Assembly: GCA_944350015.1 (NCBI GenBank)
Contig: CALVNW010000005.1
Location: 12,296-76,295 of the forward strand
Reading direction: 5' to 3'
DNA: 64,000 bases
Source of the DNA: an uncultured Clostridia bacterium
Lineage (GTDB): Bacteria; Bacillota; Clostridia; Christensenellales; UBA1242
Made by a program: the position numbers and the translations under genes. Below the pieces are notes generated by a model that was not told where the DNA came from, did not search any database, and saw nothing but the letters and a program-made list of their open reading frames with translations. Positions 6,717 to 63,077 of the stretch are shown one piece after another (the first letter of the stretch is position 1; each line of letters starts with the position of its first letter).

Positions 6717-9314
6717 ATGGATAAAAACTACTGCCCAGAATTATTTGAAGGTGAGATTTATAAAAATTGGCTAGATAAAAATTATTTTGCCACTAACCCT
6801 GACTCAAGGGAGCATTATAGTATAGTTATGCCACCACTCAATGTTACAGGTAAGGCGCACATTGGTCACGCCCTTGACAACACTATGCAAGATATACTTA
6901 TAAGAACTAAGAGAATGCAGGGGTACAATACTCTTTGGGTGCCAGGCACTGACCACGCAGCTATTGCTACCGAGCAGGTTTTGGTTAAAGACCTAAAGCG
7001 CAATGGCGAGAGCAAGGAGAGTATTGGCCGTGAGGAGTTTTTAAAACGCGGTTGGCAATGGTATGGGAAATACACACACGTAATTTGCGACCAACTTAAA
7101 AAACTAGGTGTATCTTGCGACTGGAATAGACTTGCCTTTACTATGGATGAAAATTTGAATAGGGCGGTAAGGCAGGTGTTTTGCCAGTATTATAAGGAAG
7201 GGCTTATATATAAAGGGAAGAGGGTTGTAAACTACTGCCCAAGTTGTAAGACTACGATATCTGACAACGAGAATGTGCATATAGACCAAAACACATATCT
7301 TTGGTATATTCGCTATCCTTTTGCTGATGGCAGTGGTGAGGTTGTCGTTGCAACAACGCGTCCTGAGACATTGTTTGGTGATACTGCCGTTGCTGTCAAT
7401 CCAAATGACGCGCGTATTAAAGGTCAGGTCGGCAAGGACCTAATTTTGCCACTCGTCAATAAGAAAATCAAACTTATTGCAGATGACTACTGCGAAATCG
7501 GCTTTGGTACGGGCGCCGTTAAGATTACTCCAGCACACGACCCTAATGACTATGAGGTGGGCTTAAGACACAACCTTGAAGTTGTCAATTGCATTGATGA
7601 TGACGGAAAACTTACAGAATGTGCAGGGCAGTTTGCAGGACTTGATAGAATCGAGGCAAGACCGCTTATAGAAAAGGCTCTTATTGATGGCGGATATCTT
7701 GTAAAGAAAGAAAAGTACAAAAATCAGGTTGGCACTTGTGAGAGATGCGGGGCATTTACCGAGCCAAGAATATCAACACAGTGGTTTGTTAAAATGAAGG
7801 ATTTGGCTCGACCTGCAATAGAGGCTGTAAAGACTGGCAAGTTGACCTTCCATCCAAAACGCTATGAAAAGACATATTTAAATTGGCTTGAAAACATACA
7901 AGACTGGTGTATTTCACGTCAAATTTGGCTAGGGCATCGTATACCTGTGTTTACTTGCGCAAATGGACATACTTTTGCAAGTGAGGACTTCCCGACAGAG
8001 TGCCCGGTATGCAAGAGCACAAAACTTGAGCAAGATAATGACGTGCTTGACACCTGGTTCTCGTCAGCGCTTTGGCCGTTCTCTACACTTGGCTATCCTG
8101 AACAGACTGAGGACTTAAAATATTATTATCCAACATCAACTTTGGTTACCGGGTACGATATTATAACCTTCTGGGTGTCAAAAATGGTGTTTTCTGGCAT
8201 AAAATTTATGGGCGATGTGCCTTTTAAAGATGTTGTAATACACGGGCTTGTTAGGGATATTCACGGCGTCAAGATGTCTAAGCACCTTGGCAATGGTGTT
8301 GACCCAATTGATATGATTGATAAATATGGCGCTGACGCACTTAGACTCAGCCTCATAAATGGTATGAGCGCAGGCACTGACATAAAATATGGTGAAGAAA
8401 AGGCAAAAGAGGCAAAAATATTTATCAATAAACTCTATAATGCTAGCAAATTTGTTTTGCAAAATGTAAAAGATATTGAAATTAAGCCAATTAATAGGTT
8501 TAAATTACAAGAGAAAGATAAATGGATACTGTCCGAACTTGACAAATTAGTTAAGTCAGTCAATAAAAATATAGACAAGTACGCTCTTGGCGTTGCAACA
8601 AGTAACCTAATTGAGTTTACAGTTTCAAAATTCTGCGACTGGTATATTGAGCTTAGCAAGGTTGACCTTTACAGCGGAAACGCCGAAGACAAGCAAAGAA
8701 CGCAAAACATCTTGCTCTATACTTTATCGACGCTCCTTAAGGTGTTCCATCCTTTTATACCATTTGTTACAGAGTATATCTATAGAGAGCTCCCAGGCTC
8801 TGAAGAGACTATAATGTATTGTAGCTATCCTAAAAAGGTTGAATTTAAAGGGCTTAAAAATAATTTTGATAGGGTTATCAACATCATTCGTGCTATAAGA
8901 AACGCAAGAGCAGAGTTTAATGTGCCTGACAATAAAAAGACATCTATTTACATCTTGCCTGACGAGAAGGATGCTTTGATTGAAGAAAATCTTGAAGAGA
9001 TTGCAAAGTTGTCAAGTGGAAGTGACTGCAAGCTTATCGCCAGCGAGCCGGACGAAAAATGCACAAAGATAATCTGCGAAAATGTCAAAATTTATTTGCC
9101 AATGGGGCAACTTGTAGACCAAGAGAAAGAGAAAATGCGTCTTGAAAAAGAGATTGAAAAGTTAAAGTTTGAGGTAGCGCGCTCTGAAAAGATGCTATCA
9201 AACCAAGGCTTTGTATCTAAGGCTCCTGAAAATCTTATTACGCAGGAAAAAGAAAAACTTGAAAACAACCGTGCTTTGCTTGCAAAAGTACAACAAGAAT
9301 TTAATAGTCTATAG
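6717..9314 (+). CDS. valS: valine--tRNA ligase
   Basis: 865 aa. HIGH-type motif GKAHIGHAL, KMSKS motif VKMSKHLGN, and the C-terminal coiled coil typical of ValRS. Confidence 0.97.
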   Translation: MDKNYCPELFEGEIYKNWLDKNYFATNPDSREHYSIVMPPLNVTGKAHIGHALDNTMQDILIRTKRMQGYNTLWVPGTDHAAIATEQVLVKDLKRNGESKESIGREEFLKRGWQWYGKYTHVICDQLKKLGVSCDWNRLAFTMDENLNRAVRQVFCQYYKEGLIYKGKRVVNYCPSCKTTISDNENVHIDQNTYLWYIRYPFADGSGEVVVATTRPETLFGDTAVAVNPNDARIKGQVGKDLILPLVNKKIKLIADDYCEIGFGTGAVKITPAHDPNDYEVGLRHNLEVVNCIDDDGKLTECAGQFAGLDRIEARPLIEKALIDGGYLVKKEKYKNQVGTCERCGAFTEPRISTQWFVKMKDLARPAIEAVKTGKLTFHPKRYEKTYLNWLENIQDWCISRQIWLGHRIPVFTCANGHTFASEDFPTECPVCKSTKLEQDNDVLDTWFSSALWPFSTLGYPEQTEDLKYYYPTSTLVTGYDIITFWVSKMVFSGIKFMGDVPFKDVVIHGLVRDIHGVKMSKHLGNGVDPIDMIDKYGADALRLSLINGMSAGTDIKYGEEKAKEAKIFINKLYNASKFVLQNVKDIEIKPINRFKLQEKDKWILSELDKLVKSVNKNIDKYALGVATSNLIEFTVSKFCDWYIELSKVDLYSGNAEDKQRTQNILLYTLSTLLKVFHPFIPFVTEYIYRELPGSEETIMYCSYPKKVEFKGLKNNFDRVINIIRAIRNARAEFNVPDNKKTSIYILPDEKDALIEENLEEIAKLSSGSDCKLIASEPDEKCTKIICENVKIYLPMGQLVDQEKEKMRLEKEIEKLKFEVARSEKMLSNQGFVSKAPENLITQEKEKLENNRALLAKVQQEFNSL

Positions 9315-11327: not shown

Positions 11328-11927
11328 ATGTTGAAAAAGATCAATGAGAGTTTGTTAAATAGTATACTTGAGTATATAAAGCTGTTTCAGCTTGAGAAGG
11401 GGAGAAGTCCGACTCAACGCGAGATAATGAAGTCGCTAAATATATCAAGTCTTTCGCTTGTCAGCCGGTACGTCAAAATACTTGAGGATAATAGAAGTAT
11501 CAAAAGAGATACAAACGGCACTATTGATATTCAATTTAACGTCAACTTAAGCCAATCAATTTTAGCCCCAGTGGTTGGTGAGGTTAGATGTGGTGAGCCC
11601 ATATTTGCACAAGAAAACATAGAGTCTGTTTATCGACTCCCTACAGAAATCTTTGGACGTGACAATCTCTTTTTGTTGCACGCCAAGGGAGACAGTATGC
11701 AAGATGTAGGAATAAGGGAAGGAGATTTGCTTGTTGTCAAAAAATGTGAAACAGCAGAAAATGGCGACATTGTTGTGGCACTTCTTGATGACTCGGCAAC
11801 AGTCAAGAGGTTTTACAAGAGAAAAGACTATGTTGTTTTGCACCCTGAAAATGATAAATATGACGACATTATCACAAAAGATGTAAAAATTTTAGGAATT
11901 GTCAAGCAGTATATTCATAGTTTGTAA
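11328..11927 (+). CDS. lexA: LexA repressor (S24 peptidase)
   Basis: 199 aa. N-terminal winged-helix region (GRSPTQREIMKSLNISSLSLVSRYVKILE). Cleavage/peptidase domain with GDSM and the VVKK...NGDIVVA pattern. Confidence 0.9.
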   Translation: MLKKINESLLNSILEYIKLFQLEKGRSPTQREIMKSLNISSLSLVSRYVKILEDNRSIKRDTNGTIDIQFNVNLSQSILAPVVGEVRCGEPIFAQENIESVYRLPTEIFGRDNLFLLHAKGDSMQDVGIREGDLLVVKKCETAENGDIVVALLDDSATVKRFYKRKDYVVLHPENDKYDDIITKDVKILGIVKQYIHSL

Positions 11928-11938
11928 GGAGGCAATTT

Positions 11939-12127
11939 GTGAAATTAAAATTATTTTGCCCGCATTGTGGTAGGTGTTTAGGTGAGTGTATAGCCTCAGA
12001 TGACACAAGTGATTGTAGAGTGCTAGTCAAACCGCCAATGAAATCAAAAAGAAAGCGTTTTATACATAATATGAAGTGTTTAAAATGCAAAAATGAGATT
12101 TTTATAGTAATGGAGCTCAAAGATTGA
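11939..12127 (+). CDS. small zinc-ribbon protein co-transcribed with lexA
   Basis: 62 aa. GTG start 11 nt after the lexA stop, behind aaggagg. Two CxxC pairs (CPHCGRC ... CLKC). Confidence 0.55.
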   Translation: MKLKLFCPHCGRCLGECIASDDTSDCRVLVKPPMKSKRKRFIHNMKCLKCKNEIFIVMELKD

Positions 12128-12280
12128 TTAAAGGCAAACTTGCTTTTAATAAAAAGCTTAAAAATTGCTATAAAACAAGGTTTTTAATAATAGAAAGTAT
12201 AAAATTTTATAAATAGTCGACATAGCGAACCCAGCGTTCCAAAAGACATTTTTGTTTTTTGTTACGCTGGTTTTTTAATA

Positions 12281-12308
12281 AAAGCCAGCATTATGCTGGC
12301 TTTTTTTT
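12281..12308 (+). terminator. rho-independent terminator of the lexA operon
   Basis: aaagccagca-tta-tgctggcttt followed by T8. Confidence 0.7.
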
Positions 12309-12431
12309 GTTGTGCTTTTATGTTTTTGTGCGGAAATTTAAATATTTTTTAAAAAACTTTTTCCGTTCGGTCAAATGCTGTCCGATCGGCAATTGTAGAC
12401 TTTAAATATCTTAAAAGGAGGTGGGTAGCGA

Positions 12432-12776
12432 ATGGACATTCGTAGCTGTAGCATTACGGCTGATATTTTGAATGTTCTTACTGACGGCAAAAAGCATACA
12501 ATAGCTGAAATTGCTCAAATAGTCGAAGTCAGTGAAAAGACAGTAAGACGTCACATTCAGTCGCTTTCATATCGCTATCCAATAACCACTTTTAAGGGAG
12601 GCATTGAAAGAGGAGGTGTAATACTTGAAAAGCAATATATTTATCAAGGCAGGGTAAGGACAAAAGACGAAATAGATGTAATTGTCGAGGCATTAAAATG
12701 TTATCAAAAAGAATGCAGTGATGTCGGCAAACAAAACCTTATAAAATCATTGATTGAGGAGTACAGAATGGATTGA
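12432..12776 (+). CDS. HTH (HTH_11/DeoR-N-like) DNA-binding protein
   Basis: 114 aa. HTIAEIAQIVEVSEKTVRRHIQSL helix-turn-helix. RBS aaggaggtgg. Confidence 0.7.
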   Translation: MDIRSCSITADILNVLTDGKKHTIAEIAQIVEVSEKTVRRHIQSLSYRYPITTFKGGIERGGVILEKQYIYQGRVRTKDEIDVIVEALKCYQKECSDVGKQNLIKSLIEEYRMD

Positions 12777-12786
12777 ATACCAGTAT

Positions 12787-13587
12787 CCCCACAAATTTTG
12801 CAATTTGCGGGGGCCCCAAAAAATGCAACACGAAACTAGGCAGAAGCGCAGGGTGCGATGCTTAACAATTTAGTAGATTTTATTATGTAAAATTTGTATT
12901 TCCATCTCAAAGTCGCGCTGAATTCGCAGCTTGCGAGAATTCACGTTTGGTGCGGCTATCACCCCACAAGTTATGTAACTTGCGGGGAACCCCGACAGAG
13001 AAAGAGCGCCCCGCCACGTCACAAACTACACTCAAGTGTTCATCTTACGATGATTCACCATTTCGCTCGTTTGCTTATCACCCCACAGATTAAACAATCT
13101 GCGGGGAACCCCGACCTTTTCCCCACAAATTTCACAATTTGCGGGGACCCCAAAAAATGCAACACGAAACTAGGCAGAAGCGCAGGGTGCGATGCTTAAC
13201 AATTTAGTAGATTTTATTATGTAAAATTTGTATTTCCATCTCAAAGTCGCGCTGAATTCGCAGCTTGCGAGAATTCACGTTTGGTGCGGCTATCACCCCA
13301 CAAGTTATGTAACTTGCGGGGAACCCCGACAGAGAAAGAGCGCCCCGCCACGTCACAAACTACACTCAAGTGTTCATCTTACGATGATTCACCATTTCGC
13401 TCGTTTGCTTATCACCCCACAGATTAAACAATCTGCGGGGAACCCCGACCTTTTCCCCACAAATTTCACAATTTGCGGGGACCCCAAAAAATGCAACACG
13501 AAACTAGGCAGAAGCGCAGGGTGCGATGCTTAACAATTTAGTAGATTTTATTATGTAAAATTTGTATTTCCATCTCGAAGTCGCGCT
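12787..13587. repeat. 334-bp tandem repeat, ~2.4 copies (copies 2 and 3 look identical by eye)
   Basis: Identical landmarks at 12787/13121/13455, and two identical spurious ORFs offset by exactly 334 nt. Each unit carries three 26-nt CCCC...GGGG hairpins. Confidence 0.92.
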
Positions 13588-13815
13588 GGCGTCGCAAACT
13601 ACGCTCAGGCTAAGTTGCAGTAGCAACTCTAGCATTATCGCTCGTTTGCTCCTTTCCCCACAGATTAAACAATCTGCGGGGACCCCGAGAAACTTGCATT
13701 TTCGTTTGGCGCGAGAACACCCCTAAAAATCTAACGATTTTCAGGGAAACCCAAAAGAGGCGAAAACAAATGTTAGGACGTAGCTTTTCGCTTTAAAAAA
13801 GCGAAAACAAGCAAC

Positions 13816-13850
13816 AATGCAGTTTTCGCCTCTGGTGCCGAAGACGGGAG
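13816..13850 (-). repeat. 35-nt duplicate of the tRNA-Leu 3' end plus trailer
   Basis: aatgcagttttcgcctctggtgccgaagacgggag occurs at 13816-13850 and 13937-13971. The second copy overlaps the real tRNA. Confidence 0.85.
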
Positions 13851-13953
13851 CCTTCACCCTTAAAATTTGACAATTTTAAGGGAACCCGAACGAACCCTCG
13901 GGTTCGACTCCCAACAAGTATTTCAAAAAAACTGCTAATGCAGTTTTCGCCTC

Positions 13954-14039
13954 TGGTGCCGAAGACGGGAGTCGAACCCGTATGAAGTTGCCCTCGACAG
14001 ATTTTGAGTCTGTTGCGTCTGCCATTCCGCCACTTCGGC
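13954..14039 (-). tRNA. tRNA-Leu (anticodon CAA), type II with long variable arm, CCA encoded
   Basis: The reverse complement reads GCCGAAG-TG-GCGGAATGGCAGACGC-A-ACAGA-CTCAAAA-TCTGT-(variable arm)-ACGGGTTCGACTCCCGT-CTTCGGC-A-CCA. Confidence 0.9.
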
Positions 14040-14340
14040 TTAAATTAAGTTACTTTTTAATTCTATCATAACTTGAAAAAATTTACAACTACATTTATAA
14101 AATTTTTTATTTTTTATCTATTTTTGTGCGAAAAAGAGAAATTATTTTATCAAAAATAGGTAAAAACTACAACCCCATAATTCAAAAAACAAGAAAATTA
14201 CCAAACTTTTTCAATGTCGAAAAAGGTCGAAAAAGTTATAAATTTATCTAATTTTATCAAATTTTTGGTCATTTTAATCCAAAAAAGTTATAATTTTGTA
14301 AAATTTTTTACAAAAATATACAAAATGTTGGCACAAAGAA

Positions 14341-14370
14341 TTGACTATGGCATTTGGGTGAATTTATAAT
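14341..14370 (+). promoter_or_regulatory. sigma-70-type promoter
   Basis: TTGACT (14341-14346), 18-nt spacer, TATAAT (14365-14370). Confidence 0.5.
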
Positions 14371-14392
14371 TCGTGTTAAAAGGAGAGAAAAT

Positions 14393-14905
14393 ATGAAATT
14401 AAATATATGGACTAAAACTACATTATACATTTACAAATATCTTGATACAATAGCTGATGCCATCGATAAACTCATAGAGAGGCAGGCATTAAATTCATTT
14501 TATTATAATCAAGCGAGCGCAGCCTCAAGTGATGTAGAGACTGTTTCAAATAAAATCATAAAACTTTCTCAGAGGAAAATCAATCTTATAAATATTAAGG
14601 TTGCAATAGACCAATCGCTTATGGAGATGCCACAAGAGCTTGCTCAACTTTTGATTGAAAGGTATATGGATGGCGAGCGTGGCGAAGATATTGCACTTAG
14701 ACATAATTTTACTTTTAGAACATATTTTAGAAGGCTGTTAAAAGCAGAAGATTTTTTCTCTGCGGTTATGGCGAGTAAGGGCATTGATGAAAAGACTTTA
14801 AGCCAAAACCTTAAGCAAGAAAAGTGGGTGGTTGATATTTACAAATCGTTTTTAAGTAGAAAAATAGGGGAAGAGGCGAGCGAAGAGCAACTTATGATGG
14901 CTTAG
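14393..14905 (+). CDS. sigma-70 region-4-like / ArpU-RinA-type phage late-gene regulator (putative)
   Basis: Start moved to the ATG at 14393 behind aaaggagag. C-terminal LIERYMDGERGEDIALRHNFTFRTYFRRL resembles a sigma region-4 HTH. Confidence 0.5.
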   Translation: MKLNIWTKTTLYIYKYLDTIADAIDKLIERQALNSFYYNQASAASSDVETVSNKIIKLSQRKINLINIKVAIDQSLMEMPQELAQLLIERYMDGERGEDIALRHNFTFRTYFRRLLKAEDFFSAVMASKGIDEKTLSQNLKQEKWVVDIYKSFLSRKIGEEASEEQLMMA

Positions 14906-15699
14906 TTTAAGTCGCTATCGTCGAATTCGTAGTAGTCGCCGTGTCTTTTCTTTTTAGGAATTTTCTCTGTCACTTTGCCTAGTTTTTCTTTTGCAAAAGA
15001 TGGCTTAATAAGAAGATAGATGACAACCACACACGGCAGGCTGACACCGATTATAATAAAGGTCATAGCAACAGAAGATAGACCTTGCGGGTTTGTTGAT
15101 GCGGTAAAATTAGGATTTTCTACAACTGTAAAATATTCATTGTTTTCTGTGATGTAAAGCTTGTCACAAAAGACCGAGTAAACATAACCAAAGGTGTCAT
15201 TTGAAAGCTTGCTATAATACCAAAGATTGCTCTTGTCTGGTATGGAATCGCCGTAGGCATATCCATAAAATACAACCGACTCTGTGAGGTAGGGAATATA
15301 CGCCATCTCGTATTGGTCTTGAAGATAGGGCTGTGAGTACATATTCATACCATTTAATGCAAAAATCCTAAAATAGAGGGTGGGATAGGGCATAGAGGGC
15401 GTGCCTTCCATCGCAACAACTTCGCTTTTCTTGACATAACCAAATATGTCGTCATACTGGGCATAATAAAAATCTTGATTTTCATCGTTAAGCAGTAAAA
15501 CAAAATAGCTCTCAGGAATAGAAAAAAGTTGATAGTCACTGCTGTCAATAGGCTCTGAATAAAAATAGATGTCCTCTTGCTCTATTTTGGCAAAATATTT
15601 GCGGTCAGCTCGAGAAGTTGCGGGGGTGCTTGAAAATATAACAAAGGTCAAACAAAAAATTAAAGATAATATTAATAATGATGACATTGATTTTCTCAT
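14902..15699 (-). CDS. secreted/membrane-anchored protein with SH3b-like repeats
   Basis: 265 aa with an N-terminal signal and a C-terminal TM helix plus basic tail. Two units with the FGYV(KK/YS) pattern resemble bacterial SH3 domains. Confidence 0.6.
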   Translation of the reverse strand: MRKSMSSLLILSLIFCLTFVIFSSTPATSRADRKYFAKIEQEDIYFYSEPIDSSDYQLFSIPESYFVLLLNDENQDFYYAQYDDIFGYVKKSEVVAMEGTPSMPYPTLYFRIFALNGMNMYSQPYLQDQYEMAYIPYLTESVVFYGYAYGDSIPDKSNLWYYSKLSNDTFGYVYSVFCDKLYITENNEYFTVVENPNFTASTNPQGLSSVAMTFIIIGVSLPCVVVIYLLIKPSFAKEKLGKVTEKIPKKKRHGDYYEFDDSDLN

Positions 15700-15786
15700 A
15701 GTTTCATTTTAAATTTTTAATTTGCGCTATGCAAGAAATAATTTGTCGATAAATTTAATTTTTAAAGGTATTTTGGTGGTTTAATT

Positions 15787-17214
15787 ATGAGTGATTTAAT
15801 GTATAAACTTAAACTTGTAAAAAATGAGCTTGAAAAAAGAAAAAAGGATGATTTTTTGTCCCGCTATAATACAGGTGAAAAAATACATAAAAAACAACTT
15901 GAATTTCACAAATGCAACAAGAAAAATAGATGGGTTTTTGGTGGCAATAGAAGTGGTAAAACCGAGTGTGGCGCCGTTGAGACAATCTATCTTGCTCGTG
16001 GCATACATCCATATAAAAAGAATAAGCCGATTTCTTGCTGGGTGGTGTCTTTATCTAAACAAGTGCAAAGAGATGTTGCGCAAGAAAAAATTTTGCACTA
16101 CCTGCGAAAAGATTGGATAGAAAAAGTTGTTATGGCAAGCGGTAGGTCAGACAGCGCCGAGAGTGGTATCATTGATTTTATCTTGGTTAGAAATGTGTTT
16201 GGGTCGCTAAGTAAGATTGGCTTTAAAAGTTGCGACCAAGGCAGAGAGAAGTTTCAAGGCTCATCTCTCGATTTTGTTTGGTTTGATGAAGAACCGCCAT
16301 ATGATATTTATCAAGAGTGCCGTATGCGTGTGCTTGACAAAAAAGGTATGATTTTTGGCACAATGACACCGCTTAAAGGACTTACCTGGGTTTACAATGA
16401 AATTTATTTGAACGAGAATAATGATAGCGAGGTGTGGCATATCGAAATGGAGTGGGCGGATAACCCATACCTTGATAAAGATGAGATTGAAGCAATGACT
16501 AAATCACTCTCACAAGATGAACTTGAAAGCAGAAGGTATGGCAAGTTTATGCAGTGTGGCGGGCTTGTCTATAGCGAATTTGATGAAAACGTAAATGTAA
16601 TTGACCCTTTTGACGTTCCGAAAGAGTGGCAAGACAATATCTCTATAGACCCAGGACTCAATAACCCGCTCTCTGCGCATTGGTATTGCGAGGATTATGA
16701 TGGCAATGTCTATGTGGTTGCCGAACACTATGCGCAAGGCAAAGATGTCTACTATCACGCAAATAAAATTAAAGAGATTTGTCAAAAATTAGATTGGCAT
16801 TATACAAATGGCAAGATTTCGGCACTGATTGATAGCGCCGCTATGCAAAGGACCCTTGCAAGCTCAAAAAGCGTGGTAGATTTGTTCTATGAAAATGATA
16901 TTTTGGTCAATCCTAGGGTAAATAAAGATATGTTCAGCGGGATAAACACTGTTAAGAGATACTTAAAAGACGGCGAAGGTAAACCGCATCTATTTATTTT
17001 TAGAAACTGTACAAACCTTATCAGAGAGATAAAATCTTATTGGTGGGGTGATAATGACCTTCCTATTAAAAGAGATGACCACTGCCTAGACGAAATGAGG
17101 TATTACCTTATGGATAAACAGCTTACGCTTAGAATAAAGGACAAAAAGAACGAGATACAAAAGGATAAACAGCGCCTTATCAAACAACTTAAAACAAGTA
17201 AGTATCATTTATAG
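15787..17214 (+). CDS. phage terminase large subunit (orphan)
   Basis: 475 aa. Walker A GGNRSGKTECG, Walker B-like VWFDEEP, and a C-terminal nuclease-type region (ISIDPG ... DDHCLDEMRY). Confidence 0.88.
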   Translation: MSDLMYKLKLVKNELEKRKKDDFLSRYNTGEKIHKKQLEFHKCNKKNRWVFGGNRSGKTECGAVETIYLARGIHPYKKNKPISCWVVSLSKQVQRDVAQEKILHYLRKDWIEKVVMASGRSDSAESGIIDFILVRNVFGSLSKIGFKSCDQGREKFQGSSLDFVWFDEEPPYDIYQECRMRVLDKKGMIFGTMTPLKGLTWVYNEIYLNENNDSEVWHIEMEWADNPYLDKDEIEAMTKSLSQDELESRRYGKFMQCGGLVYSEFDENVNVIDPFDVPKEWQDNISIDPGLNNPLSAHWYCEDYDGNVYVVAEHYAQGKDVYYHANKIKEICQKLDWHYTNGKISALIDSAAMQRTLASSKSVVDLFYENDILVNPRVNKDMFSGINTVKRYLKDGEGKPHLFIFRNCTNLIREIKSYWWGDNDLPIKRDDHCLDEMRYYLMDKQLTLRIKDKKNEIQKDKQRLIKQLKTSKYHL

Positions 17215-17922: not shown

Positions 17923-19929
17923 ATGAGTCTAAAGATGAAATTAGTATCAATGATATCTGCGTTTGTACTTGTAATAGGAATGCTATTAATAGGAGTATTT
18001 GCAGTAAACCAAGCTCAAGTGGATATGGGTGGAAGCATTACCTTTAACGCAGATGATGTCTACGCTCGTGTTACAGGAAATGTAACAAAGGCGCAGGTTG
18101 CACCAGAGGATTTGGATGTAACCTATTCTGCCACTGGAACAACAGGCAACCCTACAGCGTGGGAAAACCTTAACCTTGAGTTTGATAGTTATGCCACACC
18201 AATAGTGATATCAATCACAGTAGAGAACCTAAGTACAGAGAGGAGCTTAACAGTAAACTTAACAGACGCTCTTACCTCTAGTGTGCCAAACTTAGGTAAA
18301 GCACTACAAAGAGATAATGGCGCGTATACAAGTGGAACAAATATAACCTTAGACCCTAAGGATAATGGCACAAGCACCACAACCTTTACCATAACCTTGT
18401 CAGTTACCGACAAAAACCAATCTCTCACCAACGCTCAGTTTGACTATGACCTTAATCTCTATGACGAGAGCGTAGCGCCAAAAGAAATTTTAGAAGGTTT
18501 TATATTTGACGATAGTGGCAATTTAACCTCATATACAGGTACAGATAGTGAAGTTACAGTCCCATCCTCATATTCTATGATAGGAGAGCCTACAACAAAA
18601 TCTCTATATTTTGAAACGGTTGATAGCACAGAAGAATATATGATGACATTAGTAGGCATAACTAATTTTAAGTTAACAACAGACGATGGCGAAGAATATA
18701 TATTAGATGACTTCGGAGATATGGTTTTTTCTCCAGATTTTGAAAGCAAGTTCCCTTGCACGCTAGAGTATAAAGATTATTCTAATGTTACTTTCACAAC
18801 AGGCAGTGACTATCAAGTAGAAGGGGTGGTAGGTGCATTTATAATGAATCAGACTATTCAAACAGTTAATCTTCCTGATACTATTAAAAATATAGGGATT
18901 TATTCGTTTACTACATCTACTTTGAATAATATAACCTTGCCAGAAGGTTTAATAAGTATAGGGGGTAGTGCATTCTATGGTTGCAGTAGCCTTACAAGTA
19001 TAACCTTGCCATCAAGTTTAACAAGTATATATTATGGTGCATTTTGGGATTGTGAAGGACTTACAAGTATAACCTTGCCATCAAGCTTAATAAGTATAGG
19101 TAAGGGTGCATTTAAGGATTGCAGTGGACTTACAGGGAAGTTGGATTTTAGCAATTGTACAAGTTTAACAAGTATAGGGGAATGGGCATTCTATGGTTGC
19201 AATGACCTTACAAGTATAACCTTGCCAGACAGTTTAATGAGCATAGGGGAGCGGGCATTCTATCAATGCAGTGGACTTACAAGTATAACCTTGCCAGACA
19301 GTTTAATGAGCATAGGGGAATATGCATTCTATGGTTGCAGTAATTTACAGCCATCAACAACTGATGATAACGGAGTAAAATATTTAGGCAGTGAACAAAA
19401 CCCATATTTAGTATTATGGGATGGAACAGGTATAACAAACTCGTCTTATACAGTCAATCCAGATTGTAAAATTATTTGCCCTAGCGCATTCTCTGGCTGC
19501 GATGTACTTACAAGCATAACCTTGCCAGAAGGTTTAAAAAGTATAGGAGATTATGCATTCCAAGATTGCAGTGGACTTACAACTGTAGATTTAAGTAATT
19601 GCACAAGTTTAACAAGTATAGGGATGCATGCATTCAGATATTGCAGTGGACTTACAAGTATAACCTTGCCAGAAAGGTTAACAAGTATAGGGGAGTATGC
19701 ATTCTCTAGTTGCAGTAAATTAACAGAAGTCATTATAGATAGCGAGTATGTATATACCAATGCAACATCGAGATCGGCGTGTGGTTATTTGTTTGGTAAC
19801 TCATCTACCACCACTGTTAAGGTTTTGACCAGTTTGGATGATGGAACTAATAGTTATATCACCACAAACTTCACGAAGGGTCCAACCGAGGTAATTAACG
19901 GAAAGAATTATACTGTTTACTCTAAATAA
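17923..19929 (+). CDS. BspA-type leucine-rich-repeat surface protein (paralog 1)
   Basis: 668 aa. N-terminal signal/anchor MSLKMKLVSMISAFVLVIGMLLIGVFAV. More than 8 repeats of LTSITLPxxLxSIGxxAFxxCxxL. Confidence 0.9.
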   Translation: MSLKMKLVSMISAFVLVIGMLLIGVFAVNQAQVDMGGSITFNADDVYARVTGNVTKAQVAPEDLDVTYSATGTTGNPTAWENLNLEFDSYATPIVISITVENLSTERSLTVNLTDALTSSVPNLGKALQRDNGAYTSGTNITLDPKDNGTSTTTFTITLSVTDKNQSLTNAQFDYDLNLYDESVAPKEILEGFIFDDSGNLTSYTGTDSEVTVPSSYSMIGEPTTKSLYFETVDSTEEYMMTLVGITNFKLTTDDGEEYILDDFGDMVFSPDFESKFPCTLEYKDYSNVTFTTGSDYQVEGVVGAFIMNQTIQTVNLPDTIKNIGIYSFTTSTLNNITLPEGLISIGGSAFYGCSSLTSITLPSSLTSIYYGAFWDCEGLTSITLPSSLISIGKGAFKDCSGLTGKLDFSNCTSLTSIGEWAFYGCNDLTSITLPDSLMSIGERAFYQCSGLTSITLPDSLMSIGEYAFYGCSNLQPSTTDDNGVKYLGSEQNPYLVLWDGTGITNSSYTVNPDCKIICPSAFSGCDVLTSITLPEGLKSIGDYAFQDCSGLTTVDLSNCTSLTSIGMHAFRYCSGLTSITLPERLTSIGEYAFSSCSKLTEVIIDSEYVYTNATSRSACGYLFGNSSTTTVKVLTSLDDGTNSYITTNFTKGPTEVINGKNYTVYSK

Positions 19930-26829: not shown

Positions 26830-28650
26830 ATGAGTCTAAAGATGAAATTAGTATCAATGATATCTGCGTTTGTGCTTGTAATAGGTATGCTATTAATAGG
26901 TGTATTTGCAGTAGAAAGGGTGCAAGTGGATATGGGTGGAAGCATTACCTTTAACGCAGATGATGTCTATGCTCGTGTTACGGGAAGTGTAGTAAATGCA
27001 CAGGTTGCACCAGAGGGCTTAGATGTAACCTATTCTGCCTATGAGACAACAGGCAACCCTACAGCGTGGGAGAGCCTTGACCTTGAGTTTGATAGTTATG
27101 CCACACCAATAGTGATATCAATCACGGTAGAGAATCTAAGTACAGAGAGGAGCTTAACAGTAAACTTAACAGACGCTCTTACCTCTAGCGTGCCAAACTT
27201 AGGTAAGGCACTACAAAGAGATAGCGGTGCGTATACAAGTGGAACAAATATAACCTTATACCCTAAGGATAATGGTACAAGCACAACAACCTTCACCATA
27301 ACCTTGTCAGTTTCCGACAAAAACCAATCTCTCACCAACGCTCAGTTTGACTATGACCTTAACCTCTATGACGAGAGTGTAGCACCAAAAGAAATTTTAG
27401 AAGGTTTTATATTTGACGATAGTGGCAATTTAACCTCATATACAGGTACAGATAGTGAAGTTACAGTCCCATCCTCATATTCTATGATAGGAGAGCCTAC
27501 AACAAAATCTCTATATTTTGAAACGGTTGATAGCACAGAAGAATATATGATGACATTAATAAACATAACTAATTTTAAGTTAACAACAGACGATGGTGAA
27601 GAATACATATTTGATGACTTCGAAGAAGTGGCTTTGTCTTCAGATTATGTTAACTATTTCCCTTGTACGCTAGAGTATAAAGATTATTCTAATGTTACTT
27701 TCACAACAGGCAGTGACTATCAAGTAGAAGGAGTGGTAGGTGCATTTGCATTTAATCAAACAATTCAAACAGTTAATCTACCTGATTCTATTAAAAATAT
27801 AGGGTTTTATTCTTTTTTTGGTTCTACTTTAAAGGAGATAACCTTGCCATCAAGTTTAACAAGTATATGGGAAGCTGCATTCGATGATTGCGACAATTTA
27901 CAACCATCAATAACTGACCAAGGAGTAAAATATTTAGGTAGTGAGCAAAACCCATATTTGGTATTATGGGATGGAACTGGTATAGAAACATCAACATATA
28001 TAGTCAATGAAAAATGCAAATTTATATATTCAGATGCATTCGAGGCTCACTATTCGCTTAGAACAGTAACAATCCCAGCTAGTGTAACCGAGATAGGAGA
28101 CAATCCTTTTGCAGAATGTAGTAACCTAGAGAGTATAATAGTAGAGGCAGGGAATAGTAGTTACTACGTTGAAGGTAATTGTTTGATAGAGGAATCAACC
28201 AAAACCTTAATAAAAGGATTAAATAATTCCACTATACCTAGTGATATTAAAATAATAGGGGATAAAGCATTCTCTTATTGCGAAAGACTTACAAGTATAA
28301 CTCTGCCAGAAGGTTTAATAAGTATAGGACTCTGGGCATTCCTATATTGCAGAGGACTTACAAGTATAACCTTGCCAGAAGGTTTAACAAGTATAGGGGC
28401 AGGTGCATTCTATTATTGCGACGGGCTTACAAGTATAACCTTGCCAGAAAGTTTAACAAGTATAGGTGGTGGCGCATTCTCCAATTGTAGGAGTTTAACC
28501 TCAGTAACATTTAAAAATACTACGGGATGGCAAGTATCAACTTCGTCATCTATGACAAATCCAATTCTTGTTGATGTGACAAATTCAAGCACTAACGCAA
28601 GTACTTTTAGAGGGGAGTATGGTAATTACTACTGGAAACGCAATGTGTAG
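26830..28650 (+). CDS. BspA-type leucine-rich-repeat surface protein (paralog 2)
   Basis: 606 aa. The first ~245 aa are nearly identical to paralog 1. The C-terminus (...VDVTNSSTNA...YYWKRN) matches paralog 3. Confidence 0.9.
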   Translation: MSLKMKLVSMISAFVLVIGMLLIGVFAVERVQVDMGGSITFNADDVYARVTGSVVNAQVAPEGLDVTYSAYETTGNPTAWESLDLEFDSYATPIVISITVENLSTERSLTVNLTDALTSSVPNLGKALQRDSGAYTSGTNITLYPKDNGTSTTTFTITLSVSDKNQSLTNAQFDYDLNLYDESVAPKEILEGFIFDDSGNLTSYTGTDSEVTVPSSYSMIGEPTTKSLYFETVDSTEEYMMTLINITNFKLTTDDGEEYIFDDFEEVALSSDYVNYFPCTLEYKDYSNVTFTTGSDYQVEGVVGAFAFNQTIQTVNLPDSIKNIGFYSFFGSTLKEITLPSSLTSIWEAAFDDCDNLQPSITDQGVKYLGSEQNPYLVLWDGTGIETSTYIVNEKCKFIYSDAFEAHYSLRTVTIPASVTEIGDNPFAECSNLESIIVEAGNSSYYVEGNCLIEESTKTLIKGLNNSTIPSDIKIIGDKAFSYCERLTSITLPEGLISIGLWAFLYCRGLTSITLPEGLTSIGAGAFYYCDGLTSITLPESLTSIGGGAFSNCRSLTSVTFKNTTGWQVSTSSSMTNPILVDVTNSSTNASTFRGEYGNYYWKRNV

Positions 28651-52756: not shown

Positions 52757-53920
52757 ATGAAAAGTTTAAAAGTTAAATTAGTGTCAATAGTGTCGGCGTT
52801 TATACTAGCCTTGTCATTACTCATAATCGGCGTATGGGCGGTAGGTGAGACGCAAACAATTACTATGAGTGGTAGTGTTAACTTTGAGATTGCTGACAAA
52901 AGCCTATATGTCCAAGATGTGCGTATGCAAGAGGATAACAACTCTGCACCATATAGTCTAAAAGACCAAGGCAGGTTTATGCCAGGCTACATAAACGGCA
53001 ATTTTGATATGGATTTAGGTGATTTTACAAATAGTTACGGCTCTTTCGCGTTGTATTTTGACATAATAAACACTATGGATGAAACAACAAGTGAGACGTT
53101 TGCCTACATCGTGGAACAGCCAACGGCACCAAGCGGAACAACCGTCAGCGTGTCCATTCTAGGCACGGACGGCACAACACTAGAGCAAATACCACAAGGT
53201 ACAGTTAAGCCATCAGAGATTTCTGATAGTACTCTCGTCACTGCAACAATAAAACTTACAATTGCCACAACTTCGTCATCGACTGTTGATTTAGGTAATA
53301 TTACATTAACAATAAATCAATTTATACCACAAATTTATGACTATTTTACCTTTGAAGTAAATGGTGATGGAAAGACAGTAACACTTACTGACTATAACAA
53401 AAACTTATCAGATAGCACAGACGTGGTAATTCCAGCGACAGTAGATTTAGTTGGTGGTGTTTGGCAGGATGGTACCACCTACACAGTCACAGCAATAACT
53501 GATGGAAATTATAGAACTGGAGTGTTTTATGATAGTGGGATAACAAGTGTAACATTTCCATCAAGCTTAACAAGTATAGGAAGTTATGTATTCTATGGTT
53601 GCAGTGGACTTACAGGAAAGTTAAACTTAGGAGGATGTACAAGTTTAATAAGTATAGGAGGTTTTGCATTCGATGGTTGCAGTGGACTTACAAGTGCAGA
53701 TTTAAGCGGATGTACAAATTTAACAAGTATAGGGAGATATGCATTCTATCGTTGCAGTGCTTTAAAGTCAGTTGTTTTTCCTGAAGGTTCAACTGGGTGG
53801 TATGTGACACAAGACGAAACTGCAACAAGTGGGGATGCTGTTGACGTAACAAATTCTAGCACCAACGCAAACAATCTTACTGGGCAGTATAGCACTTACT
53901 ACTGGAAGCGCAATGCTTAA
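52757..53920 (+). CDS. BspA-type leucine-rich-repeat surface protein (paralog 3)
   Basis: 387 aa. Related signal/anchor MKSLKVKLVSIVSAFILALSLLIIGVWAV. LRRs (LTSIGSYVFYGCSGLTG...). C-terminus YYWKRNA, like paralog 2. Confidence 0.88.
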   Translation: MKSLKVKLVSIVSAFILALSLLIIGVWAVGETQTITMSGSVNFEIADKSLYVQDVRMQEDNNSAPYSLKDQGRFMPGYINGNFDMDLGDFTNSYGSFALYFDIINTMDETTSETFAYIVEQPTAPSGTTVSVSILGTDGTTLEQIPQGTVKPSEISDSTLVTATIKLTIATTSSSTVDLGNITLTINQFIPQIYDYFTFEVNGDGKTVTLTDYNKNLSDSTDVVIPATVDLVGGVWQDGTTYTVTAITDGNYRTGVFYDSGITSVTFPSSLTSIGSYVFYGCSGLTGKLNLGGCTSLISIGGFAFDGCSGLTSADLSGCTNLTSIGRYAFYRCSALKSVVFPEGSTGWYVTQDETATSGDAVDVTNSSTNANNLTGQYSTYYWKRNA

Positions 53921-54251: not shown

Positions 54252-55016
54252 ATGCCGTTCTGTGTTATCAAATCAAGGACTATAAAAATCTTCTTAGCTA
54301 TGCTTGCGGTGGTAATACTGCTTTGCATCTCTTTTGAGGGAGGCGCGTGCGCTCAAGTTTGGTTTGGCTCGTCATCAAGGCTTGTACCAATTTACCGAGT
54401 TGACACCGAGGAGAAGCAAGTTGCGATATCTTTTGACGCTGCGTGGGGCGCGGATAAAACGCAAGAGATAATTGATATACTTGCCGAGTACAATGCCAGT
54501 GCAACCTTCTTTTTGGTGGGCTTTTGGGTGGATAAATATCCTGAAATGGTCAAGGCAATAGATGATGCCGGACTTGAGATAGGCACTCACTCAAACACTC
54601 ATCCTGATATGGCGAAACTCGACAAAGCCACCATACGAAGCGAGCTTGAAACATCAATGTCGAAGATAAAGGACATCACCGGCAAGGATATAACTGTTTT
54701 TCGCCCGCCTTATGGCTCATATAACAATACGCTACTCAATGTTTGCTCTGATTTGGGCTTAAAGGCAATTCAATGGGATGTTGACTCGCTCGACTGGAAG
54801 GGCTTGTCTGCGGGAGAGGTTACCGACAGAGTTATGCAAAAAACTCAAAATGGTTCAATAATATTGATGCACAACAATGCCGACAATGTTTGCGACTCAT
54901 TAAGGTTGACGCTTGACTGGCTGACGAAAAAAGGATACAAAGTTACAAGCGTGGGGGAGCTTATTTATAGTGACAATTACACGATAGACGCAAATGGTGA
55001 ACAACACCAAAATTAG
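54252..55016 (+). CDS. polysaccharide deacetylase (NodB homology domain, PdaB-like)
   Basis: 254 aa with an N-terminal TM/signal. ISFDAAWG, THSNTHP and RPPYG motifs. Confidence 0.82.
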   Translation: MPFCVIKSRTIKIFLAMLAVVILLCISFEGGACAQVWFGSSSRLVPIYRVDTEEKQVAISFDAAWGADKTQEIIDILAEYNASATFFLVGFWVDKYPEMVKAIDDAGLEIGTHSNTHPDMAKLDKATIRSELETSMSKIKDITGKDITVFRPPYGSYNNTLLNVCSDLGLKAIQWDVDSLDWKGLSAGEVTDRVMQKTQNGSIILMHNNADNVCDSLRLTLDWLTKKGYKVTSVGELIYSDNYTIDANGEQHQN

Positions 55017-55029
55017 AGGAGGAAGAAAA

Positions 55030-55710
55030 TTGAATAGTACTACAGAATTACGTTGTTCAAACAATAGAGGGCAACTGATAGGCACATTGATTGAGCCAAC
55101 AAGTTCATTCGTCATTGAAGGCGACAGATTTATTGAAGGCAAACTAAAAGTTGAGAGATTGTCTGAGACGGTGGATATACTTCCATTTACAATTTCAGAG
55201 CGACTTGTCAAAGCGAATGGACTTACACTTGAAGAGGGCGAAAGACTGGCACTTGGTGGCGAGCTTCGTTCATACAACAGGATGGTTGACGGAAAAAGTA
55301 GGTTAATTCTTTCATTTTTTGTCAAGGATGTCTTAAGAGAGAACAATCTTGTTGATGAAAACACCAATTTGTTAAAACTTACGGGCTACATTTGTAAGCC
55401 ACCAAATTATAGAGTTACGCCATTTAATCGCGAGATTTGCGATGTGCTTTTGGCGGTAAATCGACCAAGTTTCAATAAGTCCGACTATATACCTTGTATT
55501 TTGTGGGGTAGAAATGCACTACTTATGCAGGAGCAGAAGGTTGGTACAAAGGTAAACTTATTAGGAAGAATACAATCAAGAGTTTACAAAAAAGAAATAG
55601 AAGAAGGAGTATACGAAGAGCGCACTGCCTATGAGGTTTCAGCTCAACGCCTTCAAATTTTAGAAAAAGAAAGCGAAGTGTCCAGCACTGAGGGAGAACT
55701 TGGTGCGTAA
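55030..55710 (+). CDS. tandem OB-fold, SSB-like protein
   Basis: Start moved to the TTG at 55030, 7 nt after GGAGG. Two similar halves with an SSB-like pattern (LGGELRSYNR..., LLGRIQSRVYKK...). Confidence 0.55.
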   Translation: MNSTTELRCSNNRGQLIGTLIEPTSSFVIEGDRFIEGKLKVERLSETVDILPFTISERLVKANGLTLEEGERLALGGELRSYNRMVDGKSRLILSFFVKDVLRENNLVDENTNLLKLTGYICKPPNYRVTPFNREICDVLLAVNRPSFNKSDYIPCILWGRNALLMQEQKVGTKVNLLGRIQSRVYKKEIEEGVYEERTAYEVSAQRLQILEKESEVSSTEGELGA

Positions 55711-55734: not shown

Positions 55735-56146
55735 AAAGCAACAATAATGTGAAAGCAGGCAAGTAATCAGACTGTACAAAAACAAGCGAGGCAAGGCTCG
55801 GAAAAGTGGCTTAGCCACTCCTTATGGGGTTCCCCTAAAATCGTAAGATTTTTGGGGGTTAGGAATAAACGAGCGTTGCCGCGATAAATTACATAGTAAT
55901 TTTCGCTTGAGCGTAGTTTATGACGCAAGCAGGAGTTTAGTAGACCTAAATGACTGTTTTTAGGCGTTATTTGGGTTACCCTAAAAACACATTTATGTTT
56001 TTAGGGAAAAGGAAAAGACGAGCGATATTGCAATTATTGCACTTAGCAATATTGCCTGAGCGTAGTCTTTGACGCGGCGAAGCAAGAAAAATTAAAAAAA
56101 TTTTTCGGTCGCGACGTTTTTCTACAGTCTGAAATATTGTTGCTTT
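55735..56146. repeat. ~410-bp mosaic hairpin-repeat element bounded by inverted repeats
   Basis: Outer IR aaagcaacaata (55735-55746) / tattgttgcttt (56135-56146), followed by a T-run. Inner IR cagactgta (55768-55776) / tacagtctg (56123-56131). The interior carries two copies each of the modules seen at 12787-13700, in opposite orientation. Confidence 0.85.
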
Positions 56147-56189
56147 TTTTTATATTGACTAATCTCATAAAATATGTTATTATCAAGCT

Positions 56190-60926: not shown

Positions 60927-61003
<77 letters not shown>

Positions 61004-61039
61004 ATTTTAAATGAAAAAAGGCATCTCTTACGAGATGTC

Positions 61040-61825
61040 TTATTTCTTTAATATGCCATTTCTAAGTATTGTATAATTAGAAGAATTATACACAATATCA
61101 ATAAATTTTCTTAAGTCTACACCTTTTGGAGATTTTTCTTCAATAATTTTTACAATATTGTTTCTTGGAAATTCTCTTAACCAACTAGATACATATTTTT
61201 TAGCTTCGTCAAATGATAATATGTTATTGCTTTTTAATAAATAATAGCAGGAATAACAATCAAATGAATTTATGTTTTCATGCAAAGATAAAACGCATCT
61301 TCGTGCTGATGAGTCGTGAGAAAGCAAGGAAATAACCTTAACATTTTCCAATCTGTTACATAGCGAAATATTTAGCAACGTAACAATCTCTCCAATATTA
61401 TTATCCTTTGAAATATTTGTCACAATTAACTCGAACTCATTAATAAAGTGATCTATATCATATTGCATTATACTTAAAGCTTCTAACTTATAAAAGTTAG
61501 ATTGATAAAACGATTGATCTTCTTGTATGTTCTCACAAATGTCTTTCAAAGTTGATAATAATAAAGATTGTATGGCACTATCTGATAAAAAATCTTTTAA
61601 TGCACTTATACATTCTGAACTTTTAATAAGTTTGATTTTACCTTTAATTATTAGATCAACCAATTGCTTTTTTAATGAACTATTTTTAATTTCATTAAAT
61701 ACTATATTAGTTATTCTAAACGAATATGGCAGCTCCATAATTTTATCAAATAACGTGGAAGAGTTGTTTTTTATTTTAGAAGTTTTGATTATGAAATCTG
61801 CATCAAGATAAACAATATTAATCAT
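61040..61825 (-). CDS. hypothetical protein, possible PIN-like N-terminus; third gene of the XRE-ImmA module
   Basis: 261 aa. Overlaps the ImmA-like gene by 8 nt. The N-terminus MINIVYLDADFII resembles the first acidic motif of PIN/DUF4411-type domains (weak evidence). Confidence 0.6.
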   Translation of the reverse strand: MINIVYLDADFIIKTSKIKNNSSTLFDKIMELPYSFRITNIVFNEIKNSSLKKQLVDLIIKGKIKLIKSSECISALKDFLSDSAIQSLLLSTLKDICENIQEDQSFYQSNFYKLEALSIMQYDIDHFINEFELIVTNISKDNNIGEIVTLLNISLCNRLENVKVISLLSHDSSARRCVLSLHENINSFDCYSCYYLLKSNNILSFDEAKKYVSSWLREFPRNNIVKIIEEKSPKGVDLRKFIDIVYNSSNYTILRNGILKK

Positions 61826-62639: not shown

Positions 62640-62641
62640 AT

Positions 62642-62989: not shown

Positions 62990-63077
62990 ATTACATACTC
63001 CTTTGCGTATATATTTTACATATTATTTTAGTCATTGTCAATATATTTTATTCAAATTGTCAACAAATTGGTGACAA

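Follow-up and report, generated by a model that had tools for sequence, protein, structure and literature searches.

Introduction

What kind of element keeps its flanks constant around an insert that differs from copy to copy and always forms a hairpin? This question is raised by a short module in a stretch of 64,000 nucleotides from an uncultured Clostridia bacterium (contig CALVNW010000005.1, positions 12,296 to 76,295), the whole of which is referred to here as the window. The original prediction, which was made from the sequence alone, described five copies of the module near 13 kb and 55 kb and proposed that it could be a multi-copy structured RNA, a mosaic repeat resembling the bacterial interspersed mosaic elements (BIMEs), or a recognition element with a variable specificity loop. 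Small mosaic repeats, such as the repetitive extragenic palindromes (REPs) and BIMEs, BOX, and Correia elements, are common, and their mode of spread is rarely clear.

The module is the core of a non-coding unit of ~108 nt, here named D+E, that folds into two hairpins. The two distant loci were correctly said to share it, but the main point was missed: one locus is a MITE (miniature inverted-repeat transposable element) of the IS1182 type, and the other is an array of repeats in the flank of a tRNA gene. On balance, we consider D+E to be probably a non-autonomous, structured mosaic repeat of the BIME/BOX kind that is specific to the lineage of a few uncultured Clostridia of the gut and rumen.

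Copies and fold of the D+E unit

The pattern ACGAGCG-N20-45-GAGYGTAGT has exactly five matches in the window, three on the minus strand (13025-13070, 13359-13404, and 13598-13645) and two on the plus strand (55869-55917 and 56018-56066), and none in 100 shuffled sequences. All five copies thus exist where they had been reported. However, units 1 and 2 lie inside a tandem duplication of 334 bp (12786-13085 vs. 13120-13419, 99% identical), and only four of the copies are therefore independent. On the minus strand, unit 1 (13012-13119) and unit 2 (13346-13453) belong to the first and the second copy of the 334-bp repeat, are identical to each other, and score 84 bits each with the covariance model described below; in unit 2, GAGTGTAG replaces GAGCGTAG. 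Unit 3 (13585-13694, minus strand) scores 100.3 bits and has a fold z of -4.05. On the plus strand, unit 4 (55819-55930; 112.2 bits, z = -3.3; P1 helix ATAAAC/GTTTAT) and unit 5 (55966-56079; 96 bits, z = -4.45; P1 AAAGAC/GTCTTT) are the first and second internal modules of the MITE; they had been listed as two separate loci but are the halves of one element.

Each unit consists, in this order, of an 11-bp hairpin (hp1), a purine linker of the AAAGGAG type, and a rod that is made up of an outer helix (P1), an internal loop, and a distal stem (P2), and the unit contains no open reading frame (ORF). In unit 3, these parts are the hairpin CCCCGCAGATT-GTTT-AATCTGTGGGG, the linker AAAGGAG, and a rod whose P1 is GCAAAC/GTTTGC, followed by the internal loop and P2. 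The CCCC...GGGG hairpin that had been noticed beside the module adjoins every copy as an 11-bp CCC(C)…GGG(G) stem. The outer helix, GGAGCAAAC / GTTTGYGAC, was found by RNAalifold on a MAFFT alignment of 30 units. It had escaped notice in the original prediction and is formed between (G)GAGCAAAC of the left flank and GTTTGYGAC of the right flank, and in this plain alignment its compensatory variants are GCAAAC/GTTTGY, ATAAAC/GTTTAT, GTAAAC/GTTTAC, AAAGAC/GTCTTT, and AAAGGC/GCCTTT. The internal loop is formed by GAGCG plus ~5 nt on the 5′ strand and YU-GAGCG-UA on the 3′ strand (CGAGCG / UGAGCGUA). Its invariant bases are CGAGC and the AG·GTAG positions of GAGCGTAG, and the intervening C is kept in at least 90% of the copies.

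The distal stem P2 is what had been described as the variable insert. The inserts do fold on their own, as had been stated, with z = -1.7 to -4.6 over the 23 distinct versions, but they are not unrelated in sequence: subfamilies are kept across metagenome-assembled genomes (MAGs), such as CCGCGTAAAATTAC-AAA-GTAATTTTCGC, which was seen at more than 10 loci, and all 23 versions have one architecture in common, namely ~5 free nt, 3-5 bp, a 1-nt bulge in the 5′ strand, 5-8 bp, and a loop. A small GCGT-(8 nt)-ACGC hairpin with a covarying closing helix had also been placed in the right flank alone. This hairpin is not supported, scoring 0.134 vs. 0.131 in shuffled alignments, 197 of 500 of which reach its score; the helix that does covary is built from both flanks, the left and the right.

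A covariance model, R1, was built and used to realign 32 full units (alignment A4). In A4, 94.8% of the cells are paired vs. 76.4% in shuffles, and compensatory change is seen in 21 of the 32 pairs. The covariation score is 0.50, compared with 0.16 for shuffled alignments (0/500 reach it) and 0.06-0.11 when the partners are slid. All three helices, hp1, P1, and P2, are strongly supported by covariation. Furthermore, G·U and U·G cells (67, or 36 without one invariant pair) are far more numerous than A·C and C·A cells (10), and therefore only one strand has been kept foldable. At 13 kb the foldable strand is the minus strand, and at 55 kb it is the plus strand; for the 13-kb locus, the folded strand is the complement of the one that had been written out. 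Folds of single sequences reproduce the arrangement of hp1 plus rod, with z = -3.3 to -4.5 when folded as RNA and similar values with DNA parameters.

Hairpins of the hp1 type (GGGGTT-CCCCGCAAATT-GNNA-AATTTGTGGGG) also occur alone and at times in tandem runs (12787-13882 on the minus strand and 55832-56006 on the plus strand). Their stems always have G·U on the sense strand of the unit and A·C on the opposite strand, and the prefix GGGGTTC of hp1 resembles the 5′ half of a tRNA T-arm. These hairpins are probably what the original prediction had listed as its first repeat module. The linker AAAGGAG was considered as a Shine-Dalgarno site for a peptide and rejected, there being no conserved start codon or frame across the copies. 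Resemblances to a K-turn, domain V of group II introns, ssoA CS-6, and the Tn3 inverted repeat were also considered, but these do not fit in the order or the sequence of their motifs.

The 55-kb element

The element at 55 kb spans 55747-56132 on the plus strand (386 bp). It begins with a degenerate outer copy of its left end (55747-55767), followed by the inner left inverted repeat, the two D+E units, and the right inverted repeat. About 364 bp of it align in nine other loci with different flanks; this segment is common to copies from different MAGs and bounded by CAGACTGTAGAnAAAC inverted repeats, outside which the sequences are unrelated. In total, the element is found at 10 loci, beside different flanking genes and in both orientations, with approximately equal numbers in sense and antisense to the neighbours. 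Neither an ORF nor a transposase gene is present in its 364-386 bp.

The left terminal inverted repeat (55768-55783, plus strand) is CAGACTGTACAAAAAC and equals the ends of insertion sequences (ISs) of the IS1182 family, TCAGACTGTAGACAAA, and the right one (56116-56131, minus strand; GTTTTTCTACAGTCTG on the plus strand) is likewise the end of ISs that encode IS1182 transposases. A scan with the terminal 17-mer of the MITE retrieved ISs of 1.5-1.6 kb that have identical ends and encode transposases of the IS1182 family (NF033551, E = 1e-131 and 6.5e-136). The end GTTTGTCTACAGTCTGA / TCAGACTGTAGACAAA bounds NF033551-encoding ISs in three of the loci and contigs that were retrieved for comparison (numbered L001-L088), all three of them viral contigs: L026 (685-2252), L043 (12398-14005), and L065 (631-2373). 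In these ISs, subterminal hairpins overlap the inner part of the inverted repeat. The hairpin just inside the right end in L026, CAAACTA…TAGTTTG, is reminiscent of P1 and of the TAGTTTG that is conserved in the unit, and to judge from this similarity it may share an origin with D+E. No IS1182 transposase was found in the window or in L001-L018.

In the window, the MITE splits the palindrome GCAACAATATTGTTGC-T8, and only AATA is duplicated. The left half of the target, GCAACAATA, read directly from the sequence, lies at 55738-55746 (plus strand), and the right half, AATATTGTTGC followed by T8, at 56133-56151. The MITE is thus shown to be inserted in the palindrome of an intrinsic terminator between a gene for a protein like the single-stranded DNA-binding protein (SSB) and a gene of an ATP-binding cassette (ABC) transporter. 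At other loci, the same terminator hairpin stands on both sides of the MITE (17 bp in L017, 23 bp in L003, 28 bp in L011, and 20 bp in L008), and one of the NF033551-encoding ISs is flanked by the duplicated hairpin GGGTGCTTCAAGCACCC. IS1272, a member of the IS1182 family, targets inverted-repeat stem-loops, and three outcomes of its insertion have been proposed: replacement of the stem-loop, its duplication as a whole, and duplication of the loop only (Wan et al., 2017; PMC5678879). A form of IS1272 with a tandemly doubled left end, IS1272L, has also been described (PMC5678879). The MITE shows all of these features, and in the window its AATA duplication corresponds to the pathway of loop-only duplication (PMC5678879).

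According to its ends of the IS1182 type, its small size, the lack of a transposase, its occurrence in several contexts, and its insertion in hairpins, we class the 55-kb element as a MITE. The gene of an SSB-domain protein, which has an N-terminal extension of ~125 aa, lies directly upstream (54994-55710). The conserved 3′ end of the second unit of the MITE (CTTTGACG) contains a possible -35 box, and in some copies TATAAA follows 18 nt downstream, pointing outward.

The array behind tRNA-Leu

The copies at 13 kb lie in a different context. The gene of tRNA-Leu(CAA) is at 13954-14039 on the minus strand (ARAGORN and Rfam), and the repeat array occupies its 3′ flank on the same strand. Every copy that is not in a MITE adjoins the 3′ end of a tRNA gene, which is Leu-CAA, Leu-TAG, Glu-CTC, or Glu-TTC, and at 8 of 10 tRNA-linked loci the unit is downstream of the tRNA and on its strand. 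The arrays are mosaics of a trailer hairpin with a strong fold, a B block (CGCGCCAAACG-[hairpin]-GCGCGACTT), a promoter-like site, a GCGCTTCTGCCTAG block, hp1-only units, and D+E units. No inverted repeat of the CAGACTGTAGA type is present in 12000-14500 at up to 3 mismatches, and none was seen in the tRNA-linked loci. Because the terminal repeats are missing, the 13-kb copies cannot be classed as a MITE.

Two tandem copies of a 334-bp composite unit occupy 12786-13453 on the minus strand, whereas L085 has one copy and L015 has none. In sense order, the composite contains hp1, hp1, rod, GGCGGGGCGCTC block, hp1, B block, TTGAGA-17-CATAAT, and GCGCTTCTGCCTAG block. The promoter-like TTGAGA/TCGAGA-17-CATAAT is found in each array unit just after the GCGCGACTT flank and is directed in sense (13550-13578, 13216-13244, and 12882-12910, minus strand). 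The GCGCTTCTGCCTAG block was considered as a terminator or a small RNA and rejected, its fold being no better than that of shuffles (z = -0.04).

Strain variants of the array were retrieved via the identical 114-aa helix-turn-helix (HTH) protein that is encoded beside it, and in these variants the length of the array ranges from 517 to 1263 nt. The same 114-aa protein is identical in at least 23 contigs with arrays of differing length. Alignment of the window with L086, L088, and L015 reveals three clean blocks of presence or absence between near-identical flanks. In the third block, D+E (13587-13694) stands in place of the loop and the 3′ arm of the hairpin of the B block, and the site is empty in L086 and L088 (B = AAAATGCAtccGCATTTT). 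An hp1-only unit of 40 nt (13717-13756, minus strand; TTTTGGGTTTCCCTGAAAATCGTTAGATTTTTAGGGGTGT) is another such block and is missing from L086 and L088. The comparison of synteny between strains, which had been suggested earlier, thus shows that the unit is gained or lost as a block. D+E lies in the B hairpin in the same polarity at two further tRNA loci (three in all), and in L013/L014 it is inverted relative to its neighbours. In one hp1, a compensatory pair and loop changes differ between the window and L015, which looks like conversion from another copy.

A direct duplication of 35 nt, which includes the end of the tRNA T-loop, the acceptor arm, CCA, and a 17-nt trailer, is located at 13816-13850 and 13937-13971 on the minus strand. 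It brackets an insert of 86 nt (13851-13936) that carries an inverted copy of the T-arm and an hp1-type hairpin, and both the insert and the duplication are missing from L087 and L088. Together they form the first of the three blocks of presence or absence. At its start, the insert contains the trailer arm (AGCAGTTTT) and the T-arm (GGGAGTCGAACCCG) as inverted copies. The same direct-inverted-direct design occurs at other tRNAs in L010/L077, L007, and L009, with duplications of up to 115 nt.

Distribution and neighbouring genes

A scan for the exact pattern in one genome per species found 18 further loci in ~9 MAGs of uncultured gut or rumen Clostridia/Firmicutes. A scan of a metagenome collection for the module found only 6 short contigs, all of the same clade, and a scan of a viral collection found no locus. 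The MITE had no match in plasmids and phages, the modules of units 3 and 1 had none in phages, and the whole tRNA-flank array had none in plasmids. In Rfam 15, only tRNAs reach the gathering score, and for both loci the lists at E <= 10 consist of weak and unrelated matches. To judge from these resources, the family thus has a narrow range and no earlier description.

The window encodes ORFs that, from their N-termini, we take to be lepA, ffh, gyrB, and gyrA, and Pfam identifies a class I (Val-type) tRNA synthetase in an 865-aa ORF (6717-9314). Because the window is chromosomal, with housekeeping ORFs, we rejected a prophage attachment site. Across the array from tRNA-Leu, a gene for an S24-peptidase/LexA-like repressor (199 aa) and the gene of the 114-aa HTH protein are found at 11328-12776. 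A gene similar to the large subunit of terminase (Terminase_6N/6C, 15787-17214) and two Pfam-negative ORFs of 183 and 265 aa lie beside tRNA-Leu (14354-17214), and this group is syntenic in the MAGs of several species (L010, L012, L015, and L084-L088) amid chromosomal housekeeping genes. The ORF at 261-1037, at the start of the window, looks by its N-terminal sequence (…GRYGYRRV…) like the OrfB transposase of an IS3-family element. Three paralogues (17923-19929, 26830-28650, and 52757-53920) have nearly the same N-terminal signal or anchor, MSLKMKLVSMISAFVLVIGMLLIGVFAV…, and look like a family of surface proteins; for one of the three, the identical 387-aa gene in L079 has a precomputed Pfam hit to LRR_5. 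At 60927-63998, tRNA-Arg(CCT) is followed by small ORFs on the opposite strand, of which at least one is HTH-like, and the G+C content is lower (~0.30); this stretch may be an integrated element.

Discussion

Of the three proposals made for the module, the BIME-like mosaic repeat is closest to the evidence, because the blocks are modular, non-coding, and interspersed, vary in order and orientation, and are gained and lost between strains, although the definition of REP/BIME elements does not apply to them in the strict sense. D+E blocks are added and removed as discrete units, in or beside other hairpins. The two units at 55.7-56.1 kb are the cargo of the IS1182-ended MITE, whose insertion is of the hairpin-targeted kind described for IS1272. 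In the mechanism that we favour, the unit would act as a single strand in folded form, which may be RNA or single-stranded DNA, and its invariant loop may serve as a handle for recognition by a protein, through which an enzyme whose gene lies at another place in the genome would propagate or retain the unit. Among 89 neighbouring proteins, the 25 Pfam families that recur most often include no mobility family; each of these families is found in only 2-3 neighbours, and they reflect synteny.

Several observations weigh against this reading. Strand-specific folding is unexpected for a double-stranded or cruciform substrate of a DDE transposase and fits RNA at least as well. A DDE transposase is also no simple explanation for the copies of the tRNA arrays, because these lack both terminal inverted repeats and a consistent target duplication, and gene conversion between paralogous arrays could yield the same patterns of presence and absence without transposition. 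Inspection of ~200 kb of the same genomes revealed neither an autonomous partner nor an enzyme that could mobilise the unit. Furthermore, no empty site was found for the MITE of the window, all 5 other contigs with an identical SSB-like protein being filled. The covariation counts of A4 lean towards the model that built this alignment, whereas the P1 variants come from a plain alignment, and the copies are related by descent, which leaves only ~5-8 independent compensatory events per helix.

The strongest alternative is that D+E is a structured RNA, that is, a multi-copy small RNA or a cis-acting element of tRNA trailers or 3′ untranslated regions that would bind a protein via the invariant internal loop; its spread in the genome would then be secondary, by hitch-hiking in the MITE and in tRNA trailers. 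In favour of this part of the original prediction is the fold, which is supported by covariation and specific to one strand, with one invariant and many variable G·U pairs and with z values of -3.3 to -4.5. The hp1 loops are often of the GNRA type (GTAA, GTGA, GCAA, and GAAA), and the P1 extension GGAG/UGAC can form tandem sheared G·A pairs, which are A-U instead in two L012 copies. In addition, the unit follows the tRNA on its strand at 8 of the 10 tRNA-linked loci, and every array unit contains the sense-strand promoter-like TTGAGA-17-CATAAT. However, the copies in MITEs lie in either orientation to the neighbouring genes, about equally in sense and antisense, and no convincing conserved promoter is found upstream of the unit in the MITE. 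Terminators stand between the tRNA and the units, no Rfam match was obtained even at E <= 10, and DNA folding parameters give folds of equal significance. Moreover, the number and position of the copies differ among near-identical strains, which is unusual for an RNA gene that is needed. We regard the structured RNA as unlikely, while taking it seriously.

Another alternative is that D+E itself moves as a folded single strand, either as RNA, in the manner of a short interspersed nuclear element (SINE) via reverse transcriptase, or as single-stranded DNA, and inserts specifically into the loops of other hairpins. The targets would then be the T-loops of tRNAs, terminators, and other repeats, and the IS1182-type MITE would be only a secondary vehicle. 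Several features of the junctions would fit this explanation: a precise 3′ junction at the foot of a hairpin, a variable and T-rich 5′ junction, the absence of one arm of the hairpin, long target duplications of variable size (35-115 nt), and snap-back inverted copies of the target. We consider this explanation improbable; if it were true, the unit would represent a new class of mobility in bacteria.

D+E could also be a recombination site of folded single-stranded DNA, similar to integron attC or the attP(+) of CTX phage, that is recombined into hairpins (T-loops of tRNAs, terminators, and other repeats) by a tyrosine recombinase or an HUH enzyme. P1 and P2 would be the boxes to which the protein binds on either side of an unpaired centre, and one base would be extrahelical. 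The paired box with an AAAC/GTTT core, the unpaired centre, the second box with a conserved 1-nt bulge, and the variable terminal part agree with such a site, as do the preservation of only one foldable strand, the insertions in hairpin loops in either orientation relative to the neighbours, and the direct duplications starting in the T-loop that flank insertions, of which the one in the window is 35 nt long and the one in L010 115 nt. However, the AAC/GTT that defines attC is not invariant, being GAC/GTC or GGC/GCC in 8 of 31 copies, no cassette ORFs lie between the sites, the 89 neighbouring proteins include no recurrent integrase or HUH enzyme, and the two loci of the window are oppositely oriented to the direction of replication that is suggested by the GC skew. 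A site of this kind is thus quite improbable in our view.

It is very improbable that the copies are decaying descendants of one ancestor without constraint and that their hairpins arose by chance or by palindrome-forming errors of replication. Local inverted duplications do arise, as in the inverted copies of the T-arm and the trailer arm, and gene conversion between copies is evident, but an architecture of three helices with a fixed position of the bulge is kept across stems of unrelated sequence, the internal loop is invariant, and pairing is far above that of shuffled and slid controls. Finally, a variable insert that acts as a guide or specificity determinant for a genomic, phage, or plasmid target, to which the constant scaffold with its variable centre bears a superficial likeness, has a negligible probability, because the variable bases are paired among themselves, change by compensation, and are therefore not free to pair with a target, the internal loop being the invariant part, and because they match nothing else (no match of at least 13 nt elsewhere in the window, none in phages for the modules tested, and none in plasmids for the array), while the same inserts are kept across MAG species.

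The mosaic repeat that we favour bears on several wider points. Hairpin-targeted insertion with duplication of the whole hairpin is extended to further ISs of the IS1182 type and to a MITE. Arrays behind tRNA genes can be mistaken in annotation for scars of attachment sites or for genes of small RNAs. Because its one-strand fold is supported by covariation, its loop is invariant, and both filled and empty sites are available, the module is tractable for asking what recognises it.

Comparison with known systems

Among the systems that D+E recalls, attC and the attP(+) of CTX phage share with it a rod folded from one strand in which the boxes are paired, the centre is unpaired, one base is extrahelical, and the distal part varies, and in all of them the sequence is conserved mainly at the base and the centre while the stems covary. 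The boxes R''/R' of integron attC sites are RYYYAAC … GTTRRRY, the sites are separated by promoterless cassettes, and intI and attI are nearby. In D+E, by contrast, the core AAC/GTT is not invariant (the innermost triplets of P1 are mostly AAC/GTT and otherwise in 8 of 31 copies), the outer positions depart from RYYY/RRRY, and an extra upstream hairpin is always present. There are no cassettes and no integrase nearby; the units are separated by 100-330 nt in which no credible ORF lies, and their neighbours are housekeeping genes.

D+E is similar to REP/BIME elements in being a short, non-coding, hairpin-forming intergenic repeat that occurs in mosaics of both orientations and often at the ends of genes, and movement in trans by an enzyme of a single-copy gene is assumed for both. 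A REP is defined as an imperfect palindrome of 20-40 nt headed by a conserved 5′ GTAG, and it is associated with the gene of a REP-associated tyrosine transposase (RAYT), which is a Y1 HUH transposase. D+E is larger, with two hairpins and an invariant internal loop, its copy number seems low, no RAYT gene is known to accompany it, and its host belongs to the Clostridia. Its invariant GTAG lies 3′ of P2, in the internal loop and at the junction with P1, and not at the 5′ head of a palindrome. In the 89 neighbouring proteins, a crude screen for motifs revealed no HUH motif, and the recurrent Pfam families include none of the HUH type. The BOX elements of the pneumococcus (boxA-boxB(n)-boxC), which we compared in their architecture, are likewise modular non-coding repeats of Firmicutes with a variable number and combination of modules and stable predicted folds. 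Unlike BOX, D+E is tied to the 3′ flanks of tRNA genes and to an IS1182-type MITE, and its fold is supported by covariation, beyond folding energy.

The 55-kb MITE can be compared directly with IS1182 and IS1272. It has the same terminal inverted repeat of ~16-17 nt (TCAGACTGTAGACAAA), it is found in the hairpins of terminators or inverted repeats with duplication of the whole hairpin or of the loop only, and its left end is doubled as in IS1272L. It differs from these ISs in having no transposase, with no autonomous partner seen in its clade, and in its interior, which is more than IS-end sequence and is composed of two structured units that also exist outside any IS, in the arrays that flank tRNA genes.

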